NCBI RefSeq assembly: GCF_036365525.1
Contig: NC_090403.1
Location: forward strand, 51,399,095 to 51,463,094
DNA from: Heterodontus francisci
Taxonomy: Eukaryota
Direction of reading: 5' to 3'
DNA length: 64,000 nucleotides
Under the pieces are notes generated by a model. That model searched no databases and was not told the DNA's origin. It saw only the letters and a program-made list of their open reading frames with translations. How positions within the stretch are numbered: the stretch's first letter is position 1; every line of letters begins with the position of its first letter. Positions 17,908 to 58,957 of this stretch are shown one piece after another. A program made the position numbers and the translations under genes.

Positions 17908-18096
17908 CTATTCCAAAGGAGGGCTTGTATGGAGAGCTGCCTGTTGGACCCAGCCCTCTTTGTGAGTGCCATCGCAGTACGGAGGGTGCTTGGTTTGTTT
18001 GCAGCCACACAGCCAGACCGTCTTTGCTTCTTCCAGTTTGAACCTCAGTGGAGTGGGAGCCGAAGGGACAGACTTGTGGCTTCCATCACAGAATGG
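17908..18096 (-). CDS. CISD3: CISD3 last coding exon (PFCDGSHK...WLCGCKQTKHPPYCDGTH...PPLE*)
   Basis: Completes CDGSH motif 1 (PFCDGSH) and holds all of motif 2 (CGCKQTKHPPYCDGTH). Preceded on the minus strand by a pyrimidine tract and acceptor ctttcctctcatcag. 189 nt including the TAG stop, phase 0. Confidence 0.96.
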   Translation of the reverse strand, partial: PFCDGSHKSVPSAPTPLRFKLEEAKTVWLCGCKQTKHPPYCDGTHKEGWVQQAALHTSPPLE

Positions 18097-19574
18097 CTGA
18101 TGAGAGGAAAGAGAAAGGCACATCGTTAGAGAAAAAAAAAGACATAGTATCACAATACACGCTGGCCTGGAGTCCTAATCTGAACCTAACATAAGAAATA
18201 AGAGCAGGATGACATGCAAATTCTTGAAGCATTCCTTATTATTTTAGGATGTATGATAGCTTAGTAGCTATCTTACTGGACTAGTAATCAAGTGGTCTGG
18301 AGTTGTGATCTGGAGACATGAGCTCAAATCCCACCATGGTAGCTGGGACATTTTAAATTTAATGAATTACATAAATCTGGAATTAAATAAAAAAAGCTAG
18401 TATCAGTAATGGTGACCATGAAACTTCCAGATTGTCCTAAAAACATAACTGGTTCACTAATACCCTCTAGGGAAGGAAATCTGCCACATGGCCCTTCGAG
18501 CCTGCTCCACCATTCAGTAAGATCATGGCCGATCTTCTACCTCAACTCCCCTATCCTACCCTATGCCCACATGCCTGGGGATGAAAACAAAATCAGACTC
18601 CGCTGTAATGCTTTTCACACTTGAATAGCCTGCTGAAACTATGGTCACGAGTGCACTGTAAGGCACAGGCACGCAGCACACCTGTAGAACTATACTGCAG
18701 GAAAGGGTCAATGGCTCCAGGGGAATGGGGGGGGGGGGGGAGAAAACGTGTGGGGGGATAAAAGGAAGATAGAGAGAAAAAAAAACAAGTATACAACTTT
18801 GCAAAGATGCTTGGAGCAGTCTCAGTATGTCACTTGTCGTAGATTAAAGCTAATACTCGTCTGATTTAGGTTACTATTTTACTTTGAGGACATTAATCAA
18901 GTTGCCACTGATAGTTCTCCCATCAGTATTCAATCTTCATCACAAATCGACTGAAGCAGATAAGGGCGAGGGATGGTAACTCATTTCTAAATCAGTTATT
19001 ATTCTCAACTTTGCTGCCAAAATCTGTTTGGTTATGAGACATTCACCCCTGCTTAAAAATCATAAAGAAAGCTGAACTTTCACTTTCCTTCTCTACTTAT
19101 TGCACTCATCCTTATGCAGGGTTATGTTGATCTTTGAACAGATAATGGAAAAGCTTTAGTTGGGCCCTTAAGGCTACAACATATTTTTTGCTCTAAAAAA
19201 AAATCCCTCATTTGTTCATGTCAGGCGAGGGCAATGTCATAAATTCAAAGTTAATCTGATCTGCGTCGCATTCCTACTCAGAAGTGGGACTGTCAAAAAA
19301 TAGATTAAAAAGTGTGAAAAGAAAAATGATCTCTATCACGACCGGTTGCTCATGTGCTTCTGCAGTATGACTCCCAATGGCAAGTTTCAATGACCTGGGT
19401 TGGCTGATAATGAGCACATATTCAAGTTGATTGACCTTTGCCAGGTTTTGGTTGAGATGTTGGTGGCTCATTTTTCTGATGGAGAAACGGACTTTGTCCA
19501 ACTCTCTATTTCTATAAAATCATTGTCCAAATTACTTAACACTTTCATAAATGAACCCTTCAGTTCTATACCAC

Positions 19575-20005
19575 CTGGGAAGAGGCGATTGTCCTATGAG
19601 AAAGGATTGAGTTGACTGGGCCTGTGATCTCTGGAGTTTGGAAGGGTGGAAGGGGGGATCTCATTGAAATTTAGAAATGTTTGGGAGGGCTTAGAGGAAC
19701 CAATGTGGGGGAGGGGGGATATTTCCCATGGCTGGGAGTTCTGGAGCTTGGGAGCATGATCTTGGGGTGGTGGTTCTTTATTTGATGGGGTTGGGAGGGG
19801 GTCGGTTGTAGATCTTTGCAGTTTTCTGTGGATGCCCGGTTATTGAGTGTATTCAGAGCAGAGATCGGTGGATTTTCAGGTACTGGGGGAGGGTTGTTGA
19901 GGGATATGGGGGTGGAGTTGAGGTGGAAAATCAGTCATGATCATATTTAATGGCGGAGCAGGCTCAATGGGCCGAATGACCTACTCTGCTCCTATTTCTT
20001 ATGTT
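19575..20005 (+). mobile_element. CR1 3' fragment with A-to-G hypermutation
   Basis: Aligns to other CR1 3' ends in the window; tail is normal, body is G-rich through A>G changes. Confidence 0.85.
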
Positions 20006-20384
20006 CTACATTCATCAAATCTCTAAATTGTCTTAAAAGTGTTTCATGTACAATGAATTCCCTTTGCATTGTAGTGACTGTTGCTGTGCAGGGAAATATG
20101 GCAGCCATTTTGTGGACAGTAAGAACTCTCAAACACTGATGAGATAAATGTGTAGTTCATCTGTTTTTCATGGTGCTTGTTGAGGAAGGAATTGTGCCAG
20201 GACGCTGGAAGAATTTTCTGCTGTTCTTCACACAGTGGCAATGTATTTTTAACATCCACTTGAACCAGCAGAACAAGCATATGGGGCTTAAGGTTAAGGT
20301 ATCATCTAAAGCAATAGAATATGATGTCAAATTTCCAGTCTGGGGCTTGAATTTGTAAGCCTTCAGAGTACAGGTATTATTAAC

Positions 20385-30058: not shown

Positions 30059-31717
30059 TAGGATCAGGAGTAGGCTGTATGGCTCTTTGAGCCTACTCTG
30101 AAATTTAATAAGGTCATGGTTAACTTCGACATCAACTCCACGCTATCTCCATATTCCATGATTCCTTTATTGTACAAAAATCTATTGATTTCAATCCTGA
30201 ATACACTTATTGACTGCGCATCCACAGTTCCAAAGATTCACAACCCTCTGAGTGAAGATATTTCTCCTCATCTCCATCCTAAATCACCAACCCCTTCTCC
30301 TGAGACGATGATCCCTAGTTCTAGACTGCCCAGCCAGGGGAAACAGCCTCTCAGCATCTATACTGTCAAACAGTCCAAGAATTTTATGTCTCAATGAGAC
30401 CACCTCCTTCTTCTAAAATCCAGAGAATATAGGTCCATTCTACTCAATCTCATAGGACAGGCCTCTCATCGAGAGAAATCAATCTGTTTATTTGTCAGAG
30501 TCTCCCTTTGCAAAACCATTTGATGTTCATTCCCTTGATCTTCACCAGGTGTGTTCTATAAAGGACAGGTGATGTGCTCTGCCAGATTACTGCCCAGACA
30601 GGAGGACTTAAATCTACCCCAATGTCCTCAGGGTAAAACACAGAAGCAAACTGAATGGGAATTTTTCTTTCAAAAAGTTTTATAAACATAGAGCTGAGTT
30701 AGAGCCATTTGCAGCATACAGTGAACGTTAAAAGATTGAGGGGATACCGTACGTGGATACAGCTGTGCAGTCGTTACGGTAACAGACCGGTTGTACCCAG
30801 AGCTCATGGGCCCAAAATGCTGCCTTGGTGAATTGTGGAAATAAAGCTGATCATTTGTGGACTGGCACCAGAGATAGAAAAAAAGCCTTACGAGTGAAAC
30901 CCAACTTGCTCACTTCCCTGTAGATCAGGGAATGGAGCTTGCTGTCTTCACTTTGTCTGGCCTACACGTGACTCCTGTCCCGTCAACAGCAACTTACATT
31001 TATGTAATGCCTTTAACATAGTAGAACATCCCAAGGCAATGTGGTTGACTCTAAATGATCACTGAAGTGGCCCAGTAAACAATTGCTGGAAGGTCCAAAG
31101 TCATCCCGAAAAGAAATGTAAGAAAGTATATTGTAGTACAATTTAAATAAAACCTGTGGTGTCATAGGCCCTGATCAAAAGGCTTTTATTTCCTGGGGTG
31201 CCAAAAAAACAAACTTTTTTTTGTCAGAAAAAAATGGTTTGTCATTTCAGTGCGCAAATGAAAATTATTCCAAACAATCACCTGAGGGCTGACTGGAGAC
31301 AGTTTGTGAATTAACACCAGGTTAATTTTGAAGGTAATTTTTATGCTTGCCATTGTGGAGGAGGTTAGTAATGGAGAAAGTTACATTTTCAACCTTTTCC
31401 TATTTAAGGGCCAATTTTGAGAGCCTGTGCTCATGCTGGGACCACACCCAACAGAGGCAAGTAACCGGACATTTTAATGGATGGAAAATTGTGGTTGGAA
31501 TACCTGGTAATTCTCGACGTGCATGGCCAACGAGCAAGGCTGCATGAACTTGGAAAATTGCCCAGTTGGCTTGGAGCACATTGGGCATAACATGGGACAT
31601 GTGTCGAGTAATATTCGATCCACTCTGTGCCCAAAAAGACCTTGTGACTACAACCAATAGTAAAGTACCTAAACAATATTAAATAATAACAGTGAATATT
31701 TATATATATATATATAC

Positions 31718-31849
31718 CTGCTTTTTGCTGTGCCCACAGGCACACCATGCATAAAGTTTCGCTGCTTGAAGCTCCGTTTCGAAGGGATGCTTGGCTGCAA
31801 TGACAGCTCTCTTAGGTGCAGCAACGGTGCAGTACCAGTGACTTCTCAT
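31718..31849 (-). CDS. CISD3: CISD3 internal coding exon (MRSHWYCTVAAPKRAVIAAKHPFETELQAAKLYAWCACGHSKKQ)
   Basis: Translated by hand; this frame is not in the ORF track. Acceptor ttttttcatttgcag, donor CAG|gtatat, 132 nt, phase 0-0. WCACGHSKKQ joins PFCDGSH to form the C-x-C-x2-S-x3-P-x-C-D-G-S-H motif. Confidence 0.95.
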
Positions 31850-32574
31850 CTGCAAATGAAAAAAAGAGGAACTGAAATCCTGGTTGGTGGTTTTGGTGCC
31901 AGAAGAATTCTAATTACCATGGTTAGACACGGTTAGCAACTGGCAGCCAATATATCGCAATGTAGAGCTTTTCCTTGCTGCATTCATTACCTGCAGAGCC
32001 AGATTTCAATGAACAGTTAGGATGCTCCCATCCCCCTGCCACCACCACCACCGTCCCATTCATCAAAGTATTTATCAGTATGTTTAAACAGTTGAAACTT
32101 ACACAAGAACTTTCCAGAGCAAAAGCTTTCAAAGAAAGCCAATATATTTATATTTTTTTAAAAACAGTTTTCTCATACAGCTAGGTCTCGGTTGTGTCAT
32201 GAACTGCTGTGTTGAGCAGAACCCCAAACTCTAACAACAGATTCTGTAAAAGCATGGGTTTTGCTCATGTCCTTTGATCTCATTTTATAGAAGCCAGATA
32301 GAAGCATCAATACTTGTCCAGTTAGTTTCTCTCCTGAACCTCTCCTGTCCTCAACATGCTGATTTTTGCAGGACTCTGGTACCACAGGAACAGGCATAGG
32401 CCATTCAGCCCCTCAAACCCGTCACACACTGTCTTGTATCTTAACTCCATTTACCTTGACCTAACCAGAATTGATCAATCTCAGTTTTGAAATTTATAAT
32501 TGACGCCCCTTGCTTCAATAGGTTTTGGAGGGGAGATTTCCACATTTGTACTGTCTGAACCTCTCTCTCTCTCA

Positions 32575-49657: not shown

Positions 49658-50512
49658 AGCTCCGCACCTTTAAGGAAAATACCCACCCAGGAGTCCTCGC
49701 TGCCGACCAGCTTCCGGTTCCTCCGGCGCCAAAAGAAACTCAAAGACAAGGAAAACAGTAAGTAAAACAGTAAGTACTTACTTATAAAACACAGCTCCTG
49801 ATGCCTTCACTCACCCACCGAAGAGTCGCTACCTTCTCCTGCTGCTCCGCCGGGAAATGAGGCCGAGTCCACGGAGCTCCGCACCTTTAAGGAAAATACC
49901 CACCCAGGAGTCCTCGCTGCCGACCAGCTTCCGGTTCCTCCGGCGCCAAAAGAAACTCAAAGACAAGGAAAACAGTAAGTAAAACAGTAAGTACTTACTT
50001 ATAAAACACAGCTCCTGATGCCTTCACTCACCCACCGAAGAGTCGCTACCTTCTCCTGCTGCTCCGCCGGGAAATGAGGCCGAGTCCACGGAGCTCCGCA
50101 CCTTTAAGGAAAATACCCACCCAGGAGTCCTCGCTGCCGACCAGCTTCCGGTTCCTCCGGCGCCAAAAGAAACTCAAAGACAAGGAAAACAGTAAGTAAA
50201 ACAGTAAGTACTTACTTATAAAACACAGCTCCTGATGCCTTCACTCACCCACCGAAGAGTCGCTACCTTCTCCTGCTGCTCCGCCGGGAAATGAGGCCGA
50301 GTCCACGGAGCTCCGCACCTTTAAGGAAAATACCCACCCAGGAGTCCTCGCTGCCGACCAGCTTCCGGTTCCTCCGGCGCCAAAAGAAACTCAAAGACAA
50401 GGAAAACAGTAAGTAAAACAGTAAGTACTTACTTATAAAACACAGCTCCTGATGCCTTCACTCACCCACCGAAGAGTCGCTACCTTCTCCTGCTGCTCCG
50501 CCGGGAAATGAG
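49658..50512 (-). repeat. Tandem 217-bp monomer array (about 3.9 copies) forming the CR1 5' UTR
   Basis: agctccgcacctttaagg recurs at 49658, 49875, 50092 and 50309 (period 217); no differences seen between units. Confidence 0.97.
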
Positions 50513-54871: not shown

Positions 54872-55509
54872 ATGTTTCCTCTAAGTTGAACTATGCACGG
54901 CTGGGCAGCAATATGGAATGTAACACGCAGGGGACAATCAGGTTGTGCTTCCTTTAAGATGTGTGCATGCACGATATGCAGCGTAACAAATAGGCTGTGC
55001 AAAGCAAAGAGAAATTAGAGAGAACATTGTTGACAACAGTGTAGAGACCAGACGTTCAAGGAAACGGGCACAGGAATTAATGCCTCAAAAAACGAGGAGA
55101 AGTGGATGCTAGAAATATGATAATTGGGCATTAATTTATATAAACCAAAAAAAAGTTAAAACTATGTCAATGATATTGCGCATGCTCAATGCCCACGGCT
55201 TGACTCTGGTCGAGTTAAATAAAATTTTGCAACATTGTCACGCACTTGTAATTATTTTTTTTTCCTCGGATTAAAAACAATGTGTGTGTATTAAGACATT
55301 GTTAAAAACAGTGCACCCTTAACGGAGAGAAAATTCTGGAATTTCTGAGAGTGTGCAGCAGCTGCATTTTGTGACTCTGGGCAACAGCAGGAGAGAGAGG
55401 TCACATGGTGCAATGTGTCCACTTGGCTGTGTGTGGAACTGGCAGAAACCGGTTGAAACCAGTTAGTTCTGAGAGACTTTCCAACGAGGTGCAATGAAGA
55501 AAAGGAGCT

Positions 55510-58500
55510 ATTTTATTCTCTCTCAGCAAAAATCTGCACATCGACTGGGTAAACTTAATGAGCACTAATGCTGTGGAAGATGAGTTTCTGGAGTGTGTTA
55601 GGGATGGTTTTCTAGAGCAGTATGTTGAGGAACCAACTAGAGAACAGCCTATTTTAGATCTAGTATTATGTAATGAGAAACGGCTAATTAATAGTCTTGT
55701 TGTAAAAGAACCTTTAGGGATGAGTGACCATAATCTGATAGAATTTAACATTATGTTTGAAAGTGAGGTAGTTCAATCTGAAGCCAGGGTGTTAAATTTG
55801 AACAAAGGAAATTATGAAGGTACGAGGGGTAAATTAGCTGAGGTGGATTGGAAAAATACATTAAAAGGTATGACAGTACATAGGCAATGGATAGTCTTTA
55901 AAGAAATATTACATAGTTTACAGGACCTGTACATTGCTTCAAGGCACAAAAACCCCAAAAGTAAAGGCAGTCAACCGTGGATAACAAAGAAAATTAAGGA
56001 TTGTATTAGACTAAAAGGAAAGGCCTATAAAGCTGCCAGAAATAGTAGTAAACTTGAGGATTGGGAGGATTTTAGAATACAGCAAAGGAGGATGAAGAAA
56101 CTGATAAAGGGAAAATAGAATATGAATGCAAGCTAGCAAAAATATAAACGAGGACTGTAAAGGCTTCTACAGATATGTGAAAAGGAAGCGTTTGGCTAAG
56201 ACAAATGTAGGTCCATTACAGGCAGAGTCAGGAGAATTTATTATGGGGAATAGAGAAATGGCAGAGAAGCTAAATGATTACTTTGTGTCTGTCTTCACTG
56301 AGGAAGATACAAGAAATCTCCCAGAATTAGAGATCCAAGGGATTAGGGGGAATGAGGAATTGAAGGAAATTAGTATTAGTAAGAAGGTTGTACTGGAGAA
56401 ATTAATGGGGTTGAAGGTTGATAAGTCCCCAGGTCTTGATATTCGACATCCCAGAGTGTTGAAAGAGGTAGCTATGAAGCTATTGGATGCATTGGTGATC
56501 ATCTTCCAAAATTCTATATATTCTGGAGCGGTTCCTGCAGATTGGAATGTCACAAATATCACCCCATTATTTAAGAAGGGAGCGAGCGAGAAAACAGGGA
56601 ATTACAGACCTGTTAGCCTTACATCAGTCATTGGGAAAATGCTAGAATCTATTCTAAAGGATGTGATAAATGGACACTTGGATAATAATGTTCTGATTGG
56701 GCATAGTCAATATGGATTTATGAATGGGAAATCAGGTTTGACAAACCTGTTACTAACAGAATTGATAAAGGGGAGTCGGTGAATGTGGTATACTTGGATT
56801 TTCAGAAGGCTTTTGATGAAGTCCTCCACAGGAGGTTGGTTAGCAAAATTAAAGCACATGAGATAGGAGGTAATATACTGGCATGGATTAAGGATTGGTT
56901 AATGGGCAGAAAGTAGGAATAAACGGGTCATTCTTGCATTGGCAGGCTGTGACTAGTGGGGTTTGCAGGGATCAGTGCTTTGGCCCCAACTGTTCACAAG
57001 ATATATCAATTATTTGGATGTGGGGATGAAATGTAGTATTTCCAAGTTTGCAGATGACACAAAACTAGGTGGGAATGTCTGTTGTGAGGAAGATGCAAAG
57101 TGGCTTCAAGGGGATTTGGACAGACTTAGTGAGTGGGCAAGAATGTGGCAGATGGAATATAATGTGGAAAAATGTGAGGTTATCCACTCTGGTAGGATGT
57201 GCAGAGTATTTCTTAAATGTGAGAGATTAGAAAGTGTAGATGTACAAAGGGACCTGGGTGTCCTTGTCGATAAGTTACTGAAAGCTAACATGCAGGTGCA
57301 GCAAGCAATTAGGAAGGCTAATGGTATGTTGGCCTTTATTGCAAGAGGATTTGAGTACAGGAGTAGTGTAGTCTTGCTTCATTTGTATAGAACCTTGGTT
57401 AGATCGCACTTGGAGTACTGTGTGCAGTTTTGGTCTCCTTACCTTAGGGAGGATATTAATTGAACATACGGAGCAGGAGCAGGCCACCCGACCCTTCTAG
57501 CCCGCCCCGTTACCCAACAAACTCATGGCTGAACCGATTATTCTGCATTTCCACCTACCCCTGACAACCCCCCCCCCACCTCCCTGCTTACCAAGCATCT
57601 ATCTACCTCTGCCTTAAAAATATTCAAAGACTCTGCTTCCACCGCCTTTTGAGGAACAGAATTGCAAAGACTCACAACCCTCTGAGAGAAAAGATTTCTC
57701 CTCATCTCTGTCTTAAATGAGCAACCCCTTATTTTTAAACAGTGACCCCTAGTTCTAGATTCTCCCACAAAGGGAAACATCCTTTCCACATCCACTCTGT
57801 CAAGACCCCTTAGGATTTTATATGTTTCAATCAAGTCGCCTCTTACTCTTCTAAATTTCAGCAGATACAAGCCTAGCCTGTCCGATCTTTGCTCGTAAGA
57901 CAGCCCGCCCATTCCAGGTATTAGTCTACTAAACCTTCTCTGTACTGCCTTCAATGCATTCACATCCTTCCTTAAATAAGGAGATCAGTATTGTACACAG
58001 TACTCCAGATGTAGTTTCATCAATGCCCTGTATAGCTGAAGCATAACCTCCTTACTTTTGTATTCAATTCCCCTCACGATAAACGATAACATTCTATTAG
58101 CTTTCCTAATTACTTGCTGTACCTGCATACTAACCTTTTGTGATTCATGCACTAGGACACTCAGATCCCTCTGCATCTCAGAGCTCTGCAATATCTCATC
58201 ATTTAGATAATCTTTTTTTATTCTTCCTGCCAAAGTGGACAATTTCATACTTTCCCAGATTATACTCCATTTCCCAGGTCTTTGCCTATTCACTTAACCT
58301 ATCTGTTTCCTTTTGTAGCCTCATGTCCTCTTCACAAATTACTTTCCTACCTATCTTTGTGTCATTAGCAAATTTAGCAACCATACCTTCGGTCCCTTCA
58401 TCTAGGTCATTTATATAAATTGTAAAAAGTTGAAGCCCCAGCACAGATCCCTGTGGCACACCACACATTACATTTTTCCATAGAGGGAGTACAACGAAGG

Positions 58501-58957
58501 TTCACCAACCTTGTTCCCAGGATAGCAAAACTGTCCTATGAAGATTGGGGAAATTGGGCCTATATTCTCTAGAGTTTTGAAGAATGAAACCTACAAAATA
58601 CTTAAAGGGATAGACAGGGTAGATGGAGGTAAGATGTTTCCCCTGGTTGGGGAGTCTAGAACCAGGGGACACAATTTCAAAATAAGGGGGAAGCCACTTA
58701 GGACAGAGATGAGGAGAAATTTCTTTACTCAAAGGGTTGTGAATCTTTGGAATTCTCTACCCCAGAAGGGCAGTGGAAGCTCAGTCATTGAGTACGTTTA
58801 AAGTAGAGACTGACAGATTTCTAAATACAAATGACATAAAGGGATATGAGGATAGTGCGGGAAAAAGGCTTTGAAGTGGATGATCAGCCATGATCATATT
58901 GAATGGTGGGGCAGGCTCGATGGGCTCAATGGCCTACTCCTGCTCCTATATTCCTAT
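55510..58957 (+). mobile_element. Decayed CR1 ORF2 (APE C-terminal part to tail), interrupted at 57458-58469
   Basis: ORF pieces 55558-56118, 56126-56782, 56963-57463 and 58538-58801 are collinear with the intact ORF2. Confidence 0.92.
57458..58469 (-). mobile_element. CR1 3' fragment nested antiparallel in the previous CR1
   Basis: GVPQGSVLG, FANDTK, HLEYCVQY, QRRFSRLIPG on the minus strand. Confidence 0.9.

Follow-up and report, generated by a model that had tools for sequence, protein, structure and literature searches.

Adenosine-to-inosine editing is normally treated as non-heritable. A-to-G changes attributed to ADAR have been described in the proviral DNA of avian retroviruses, in U3 of a Rous-associated virus and in an inverted repeat of avian leukosis virus (Felder 1994; Hajjar and Linial 1995; PMC12925331); as reported there, nearly half of the As are converted to G, the changes are linked to an inverted repeat, and reverse transcription carries them into DNA. 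Clustered, strand-biased hypermutation by a deaminase, preserved in the germline, is also reported for LTR retroelements edited by APOBEC (Knisbacher and Levanon 2016, PMC4866542), where G>A changes arise by cytidine deamination of cDNA; that screen reportedly covered LTR elements, not LINEs, and found other clustered types to be negligible. Dense A>G clusters in inverted repeats, with G depleted upstream of the edited site, are reported from transcriptome hyper-editing (Porath 2014, PMC4365171; Zaranek 2010, PMC2873906), in which edited RNA is compared with unedited DNA, and in the latter paper high-quality DNA traces are reported to have no excess of A>G. For human L1 in cell culture, PMC5224506 reports that expressed RNA was free of ADAR1 editing over more than 2.5 kb and concludes that restriction by ADAR1 is mainly editing-independent. 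The literature that we searched, which included few subscription papers so that absence is unproven, holds no report of germline-fixed ADAR-edited LINE copies.

Here we describe a retrotransposon copy, termed the query, in a window of 64,000 nt (the whole stretch analyzed; G000:C33:51,399,095-51,463,094, in a genome of 6.0 Gb). As in the avian retroviral cases, nearly half of the As in its affected part are G, and the changes would be linked to an inverted repeat and carried into DNA by reverse transcription; unlike those exogenous LTR viruses, the element is a non-LTR CR1, the changes are fixed in the genome and occur in three subfamilies, and a natural parent/daughter pair exists. The APOBEC case differs in that the changes here are A>G, would have been made on RNA, lie in duplex arms and affect LINEs, and, unlike transcriptome hyper-editing, they stand in the genome itself and do not reproduce the enrichment of G downstream. 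We consider the query block to be likely the work of ADAR on a double-stranded source RNA, fixed in germline DNA by retrotransposition (probability roughly 0.85), and for the query we argue by analogy with a parent/daughter pair elsewhere in the genome (the C3 pair), since searches for relatives, scoring 40 of 4772 and 40 of 342 candidates, found no parent or duplex partner of the query itself. The best evidence lies outside the window, at the C3 daughter and parent loci. Hypermutation of retroelements by deaminases is known; A-to-I change on RNA in a non-LTR element is what would be new here.

The query is a dead fragment of about 430 nt that has kept its 3' tail and lost its 5' end. It comprises the last ~115 codons of ORF2 (in the subfamily reference, the frame closes at model column 384), a short 3' UTR and a microsatellite tail, and at non-A sites its divergence is ~12-17%. 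A profile search with a model of the CR1 3' end gave 22 matches within the window. We take the element to belong to the CR1 clade from its known hallmarks and from the APE and RT domains of its long relatives, rather than from a repeat library or a tree. Those long relatives match Exo_endo_phos (the APE endonuclease, E 5e-18) and RVT_1 (E 6e-7) in Pfam, and a GDSL lipase, the esterase-like ORF1 remnant, at E 0.034 only; microsatellite tails are present in the alignment of relatives and in the C3 pair. Together with 5' truncation these features are shared with the CR1 clade, and no structural difference from it was found. The six junction pairs examined gave no convincing target-site duplication, and none was seen in the C3 pair; CR1 insertions often have none.

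A Pfam scan of 85 of the 121 non-repeat frames of the window identified two frames with CDGSH domains on the minus strand. Translation of the upstream one stops within a CDGSH motif, half of which is present and which the downstream exon completes, and from these translations the gene probably encodes a two-motif, CISD3-like protein. As these two exons flank the query, the query is likely antisense in an intron of that gene. An open frame of 81 codons (19277-19519, minus strand) lies in non-repeat DNA of the same intron just upstream of the query and has no Pfam match.

Table 1 Features of the query, its setting, the second block and the C3 pair (positions in the window unless a contig is given).
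Feature	Position	Strand	Basis or state
Query, 5'-truncated CR1-type LINE copy	19575-20006	+ (element sense)	nhmmer match 19572-20009 and alignment to relatives
A>G block in query	19604-19899	+	36/76 reference As to G, 3/80 Ts to C
Unchanged 3' end of query, including 3' UTR and tail	19900-20006	+	1/24 As changed
CDGSH iron-sulfur protein gene, downstream exon in stop-to-stop frame	17911-18174	-	Pfam zf-CDGSH, E 2.7e-12
Same CDGSH gene, likely upstream exon in stop-to-stop frame	31703-31909	-	Pfam zf-CDGSH, E 0.009, under curated cut-off
Younger 5'-truncated CR1 copy, ~88% identical to relatives	57460-58480	-	Alignment
Second A>G block (element sense)	57480-57591	-	13/25 As changed inside
C3 daughter	C3:172.658-172.663 Mb (L305, L321, L322)		Edited
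C3 parent	C3:172.929-172.934 Mb (L324-L326)		Unedited

Changes in the query were scored against the majority sequence of its 12 nearest copies, which were selected on transversion distance, a measure that A/G differences do not influence. Against this reference, A>G affects 37 of 106 As and T>C 4 of 120 Ts (Fisher P 3.6e-10), the remaining changes being G>A at 14/122, C>T at 9/57 and 28 transversions. The excess is also found in strict columns with at least 90% agreement among neighbours (A>G 21/73, T>C 3/84) and with two alternative references (41/101 vs 9/110 and 39/116 vs 6/123). All but one of the 37 changes fall in the block, and a separate count gave 35/70 As changed inside and 1/29 outside. 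The initial annotation had described clustered A-to-G changes with few T>C, as these counts bear out, and the words that it quoted are present at 19618, 58556, 19740, 111, 19863, 41778, 19845 and 58790. One of its examples, gagtGt (19849), is weak, as many aligned relatives have G there too, although these relatives were selected by likeness to the query. Its observation of a clean tail holds, with the start near 19900 instead of ~19935; the G-richness at ~19900-19935 is the family's own sequence in the alignment to relatives. The G>A count is close to the background rate of 0.105, so there is no excess of the APOBEC type. The A>G fraction of the query is 0.35, compared with a median of 0.067 and a maximum of 0.202 among sampled CR1 copies (the 214 of 224 with at least 40 scorable As).

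Ordinary causes that might give such a pattern are a G-rich subfamily, neutral decay with slippage in G runs, biased gene conversion, transcription-linked asymmetry and a consensus error. CR1 copies do carry a general, mild excess of A>G on the sense strand (1015/15683 vs T>C 653/13884), 13 gap events occur over 438 nt of the query, with several short indels beside new G runs in the block, and the searches for relatives scored only 40 of 4772 and 40 of 342 candidates. Against such causes, no relative exceeded 78% identity over at least 180 nt among 40 scored of 4772 candidates, and the edited part used as search sequence matched at best 72-85% over short pieces (40 of 342 candidates scored); no other unedited copy carries more than 12 of the query's 37 Gs. 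By codon position 1/2/3, the block has 19/34, 11/22 and 6/16 As changed, and non-synonymous changes make up 31 of the 36 scored. Between two subfamily references there are 70 differences, 15, 10 and 45 of them at positions 1, 2 and 3; the changes in the query thus ignore codon position whereas 45/70 subfamily differences are third-position, which argues against a subfamily origin. The excess of A>G is not matched by a rise in T>C, A>C or T>G. One contig in each of four read runs spans 19200-19978 with 0 differences from the query, the four runs representing one sample that is possibly the assembly's own source; the second block is covered by reads too, and we reject a sequencing or consensus error. 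We likewise reject a G-rich subfamily, as no close relatives share the Gs and the spread over codon positions is unlike that of subfamily differences, and also host-transcript editing in place and transcription-linked asymmetry, for which the query has the wrong strand. On the plus strand, A>G is not in excess in other repeats of the window. We regard the ordinary explanations as largely refuted, and together they are scarcely credible. The three tests that the initial annotation had set for its own reading of an ADAR hyper-edited, retrotransposed RNA (no excess of A>G over T>C, a G-rich subfamily, an error in the reads) have left that reading standing, and our results support it.

The mild sense-strand excess was observed as such in 178 CR1 copies from random loci (L051-L090 and L218-L297; A>G 6.5% vs T>C 4.7%), where it extends over all 5' contexts and is not clearly ADAR-like; a similar excess occurs at 55500-57455 of the window (27/600 vs 8/445).

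The window holds a second block, in a younger copy inserted antisense into an older CR1 at 55531-58957. Overall this copy (hereafter the 57460 copy) has A>G at 15/124 and T>C at 2/120; outside the block, none of 94 As within the last 470 nt and 4 of 271 in the upstream part are changed. The block lies in the last 130 nt of the copy, ~890 nt from its 5' junction. It is covered by a contig of run X1 and, at a likeness of at least 97%, by a single Illumina read (X5) from a different study and sample, which makes the cross-sample support thin; the RAD-seq run X6 gave no coverage of it. With these two blocks, 2 of the 21 CR1 copies in the window are affected, one of the two being the copy that was selected for study.

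At least seven insertions with A>G blocks were found in the genome, including the two in the window and five from targeted searches; the initial annotation had proposed a scan for more such copies, and the 57460 copy, L121, L125, L126, L298 and the C3 daughter are further cases. In every copy with a single affected arm, the excess is of A>G on the element's sense strand, irrespective of the chromosome strand. L121, retrieved with a motif holding four A>G changes, has A>G at 47/80 and T>C at 0/91; a search with L121 gave L125 (37/68 vs 4/72) and L126 (22/109 vs 3/108). L298 was found with a motif from a very young subfamily and, with that motif excluded, has A>G at 29/190 and T>C at 1/179; it carries 34 A>G in 417 nt, and its remaining change types are at background. 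The predominance of A>G is stronger in L121, L125 and L298 than in the query. Blocks have sharp edges, and their extent differs from copy to copy; in L126, 21/48 As are changed inside and 1/57 outside, and the last 200 nt are clean. Because extents differ and few other derived bases are held in common, the blocks look like separate events. Where L126 and L121 overlap, all 13 changes of L126 are within the 20 of L121, suggesting fixed site preferences. The unedited 3' tail of the query, noted at the outset, is not general, since three other copies are edited to ~15-30 nt from the 3' end, and an unedited 3' UTR was therefore rejected as a rule. In five of the six single-arm copies, the 5' truncation lies at most ~120 nt from the block edge. 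Edited copies have more indels and, L126 excepted, more non-A divergence than their neighbours, whose own divergence is underestimated, as the reference was derived from them. CA dinucleotides of the reference in blocks became CG (13), TG (2) or TA (2), or were unchanged (18), which is uninformative on CpG decay.

L121 is inserted in an A-rich satellite that is itself unchanged by eye. Within this AT-rich setting (L121:841-979 and 1451-1793), part of the copy is duplicated locally with the same edits, and the second fragment was counted with the first as one event; G runs in L121 are expanded to 10-16 bases.

For the background, we sampled 224 CR1 copies in 10-kb loci, 120 of these loci being spread out and 20 neighbouring. 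No copy reached P<1e-5 for an A>G block of 80 columns, and a single copy had such a block at P<1e-4. Heavy blocks are rare, below ~1.3%, and light blocks are not bounded by this test. Three candidates, L264 (block P 5.5e-5), L294 and L042, were not counted as edited copies, as they look like subfamily variation or poor alignment. Pattern searches for A>G gave 1, 16 and 7 matches, representing 3 distinct hypermutated loci, and mirror searches for T>C gave 1, 18 and 16 matches, representing 1; matches are unevenly divided between the strands (0/7 and 3/13), which makes the counts lower bounds, and 3 sense versus 1 antisense loci are too few alone for a strand asymmetry. No T>C block was present among 25 copies in loci from two of the mirror searches. 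A generic scan of all repeats in 144 loci (581 kb callable), which is insensitive to old copies, recovered four of the five copies then known, missed the query, and gave no new A>G or T>C blocks.

Several near-identical 3-kb loci (L164-L166, L168, L169 and L310, L314-L319) occur on several contigs and are likely segmental duplications or unplaced haplotype copies; motif match counts are therefore inflated. Blocks of non-CpG G>A (P ~4e-6 to 9e-6) were observed at L179:185-476, L233:7433-7752 and L199:534-959, which may be subfamily mismatch or APOBEC-like editing.

A copy from the mirror search, at L305, has T>C at 13/119 on its own sense strand, with 14 T>C in 146 nt. It broke the rule that only the sense strand is affected, which we had to reject, and was then explained by its position, nested antisense inside another young CR1 and so antisense in the host transcript. 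From the idea that such a transcript folds back, A>G was predicted at the host's 3' end before its sequence was fetched; that end, 2.7 kb off, has A>G at 13/101, compared with 6/464 outside (P 1e-6), and the A>G changes begin where the inverted homology begins (0/47 in the 200 nt before, 10/56 after).

With the nesting junction as search sequence, one other copy of the composite was retrieved, the parent, 270 kb from the daughter. The two share 5.3 kb, consisting of ~1 kb of upstream, 5'-transduced flank, the 5'-truncated host CR1 and the nested copy, and ending at the CR1 tail. The parent lies in non-repeat flanks and is without the changes, while one and the same satellite borders the daughter at either end; the daughter is a CR1-mediated 5.3-kb retrocopy, a new insertion interrupting a satellite. 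On the transcript strand, daughter and parent differ by A>G at 17/92 in the nested arm and 18/106 in the host arm, with 1 reverse change; outside the arms, A>G is 16/1100 and reverse changes are 13/1210. In the loop between the arms none of 232 As is changed. The arms are only 71% complementary, and the changed stretch is a part of the paired span. The CR1 part outside the arms differs by ~2%, unlike the near-identical upstream 1 kb (L305:2462-2924 and L322:1-574 against L324 and L326), which has 2 differing sites only; later gene conversion between the loci possibly accounts for this uneven divergence.

The neighbours of the changed As in the C3 pair agree with an origin in RNA editing. By 5' neighbour, changed As number 11/24 after U, 14/33 after A, 8/27 after C and 1/35 after G, i.e. 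1/35 after G against 33/84 after the other bases, and depletion of 5' G is a motif reported for ADAR (PMC4365171). Changes on the same strand in both arms, a clean loop and sparing after G together give the signature of a double-stranded-RNA adenosine deaminase. When six heavily changed copies are pooled, the counts are 45/69 after T, 67/103 after A, 24/65 after C and 46/139 after G; A or T (W) differs from G (P 2e-8), and C is not separated from G (37% vs 33%, P 0.64). The depletion of 5' G expected from the initial annotation is thus found in the C3 pair and in the pooled copies; in the query alone it falls short (11/30 vs 23/38, P 0.087), and the 57460 copy shows no sparing (6/9). A 3' G, whose enrichment is typical of ADAR, is not clearly enriched (pooled 77/144, P 0.17; query 15/23, P 0.12; C3 pair 9/41).

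A bias of W over S with C similar to G also fits the WA motif of polymerase eta, and error-prone synthesis could be considered instead, either in second-strand synthesis by polymerase eta or iota, both of the Y family, or by a dATP-starved reverse transcriptase, placing G opposite T or U along a tract. Five of the six single-arm blocks begin no more than ~120 nt from the 5' junction, the expected starting point of second-strand synthesis; the 57460 block is at the 3' end and far from that junction. The spectrum of L298, with A>G alone above background, is purer than those of polymerase eta, and neither variant can account for two same-strand blocks, separated by 2.7 kb, that coincide with the arms of an inverted repeat and leave the loop clean. 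Nucleotide-pool imbalance is reported to bias retroviral mutation (PMC3185545), which lends the starved reverse transcriptase some credit, and yet with the C3 anatomy in view we rate error-prone synthesis as very improbable.

ADAR edits might also have entered a copy after its insertion, either through RNA-templated repair from the host transcript or through gene conversion with an edited cDNA or an edited copy as donor. That blocks are patches inside otherwise normal copies would suit such an entry, as would the share of affected copies in the window beside 0/224 elsewhere, although one of the two in the window was selected. The query speaks against it, as editing of a transcript of its likely host gene would appear as plus-strand T>C and the query shows the reverse, and so does the inverted neighbour of the 57460 copy, which has no matching T>C block (4/108). 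Since the C3 parent locus is unedited and the edits arrive with the new insertion, we give later entry only a slim chance.

Editing before retrotransposition, the reading that we prefer, would proceed as follows. In the source transcript, the 3' end of a CR1 would be base-paired with an inverted copy, an anatomy seen in the DNA of the C3 pair and presumed for the query, whose source would by now be lost or unrecognised. Deamination would then affect adenosines of the paired stretch; the changes are observed, as are their restriction to the arms and their context, and established biochemistry points to ADAR, which is present across metazoans according to PMC5625713. Target-primed reverse transcription from the CR1 3' tail would place the product at a new site, as it did for the C3 daughter and presumably for the query. 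The CR1 reverse transcriptase would copy inosine as G, as is established for reverse transcription generally (PMC5224506), and both editing and insertion would have taken place in the germline. Most products would be 5'-truncated and keep one arm, giving lone blocks such as the query, and stalling of the reverse transcriptase in the duplex is a conjecture that fits the truncations near block edges. New G runs would finally slip while the copy decays neutrally. The query is a mutational fossil, and no function is claimed for it.

Taken more broadly, we lean with moderate confidence toward a joint reading in which ADAR, by acting on retroelement RNA, is a recurrent and so far undescribed cause of hypermutation of vertebrate LINEs in the germline. 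On this reading, inverted CR1 pairs in read-through transcripts are hyper-edited and rewritten into the genome, sometimes with unique flank, leaving a datable fossil record of A-to-I editing in ancient germlines, and LINE progeny may be rendered inactive or truncated by ADAR editing. The C3 pair shows that heritable DNA can arise in vivo from edited RNA, even from a transcript that carried ~1 kb of upstream flank, and RNA editing would then be a source of heritable mutation. One may now ask how frequently retroelements are edited in the germline, whether editing disables or truncates LINE progeny, and what sequence preference ADAR had in the past, also in species without transcriptome data. 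Edited copies are missed or misdated by repeat annotation. As heavy blocks are this rare, the evolutionary weight of the effect is probably small.

Two other repeats were noticed in the window. A perfect tandem repeat with a 217-nt unit in about four copies, 100% identical, occupies 49658-50512, and an inverted repeat pair of 143 nt (1756-1898 and 2506-2648; 97% identical, ~600 nt apart) possibly represents the ends of a DNA transposon.
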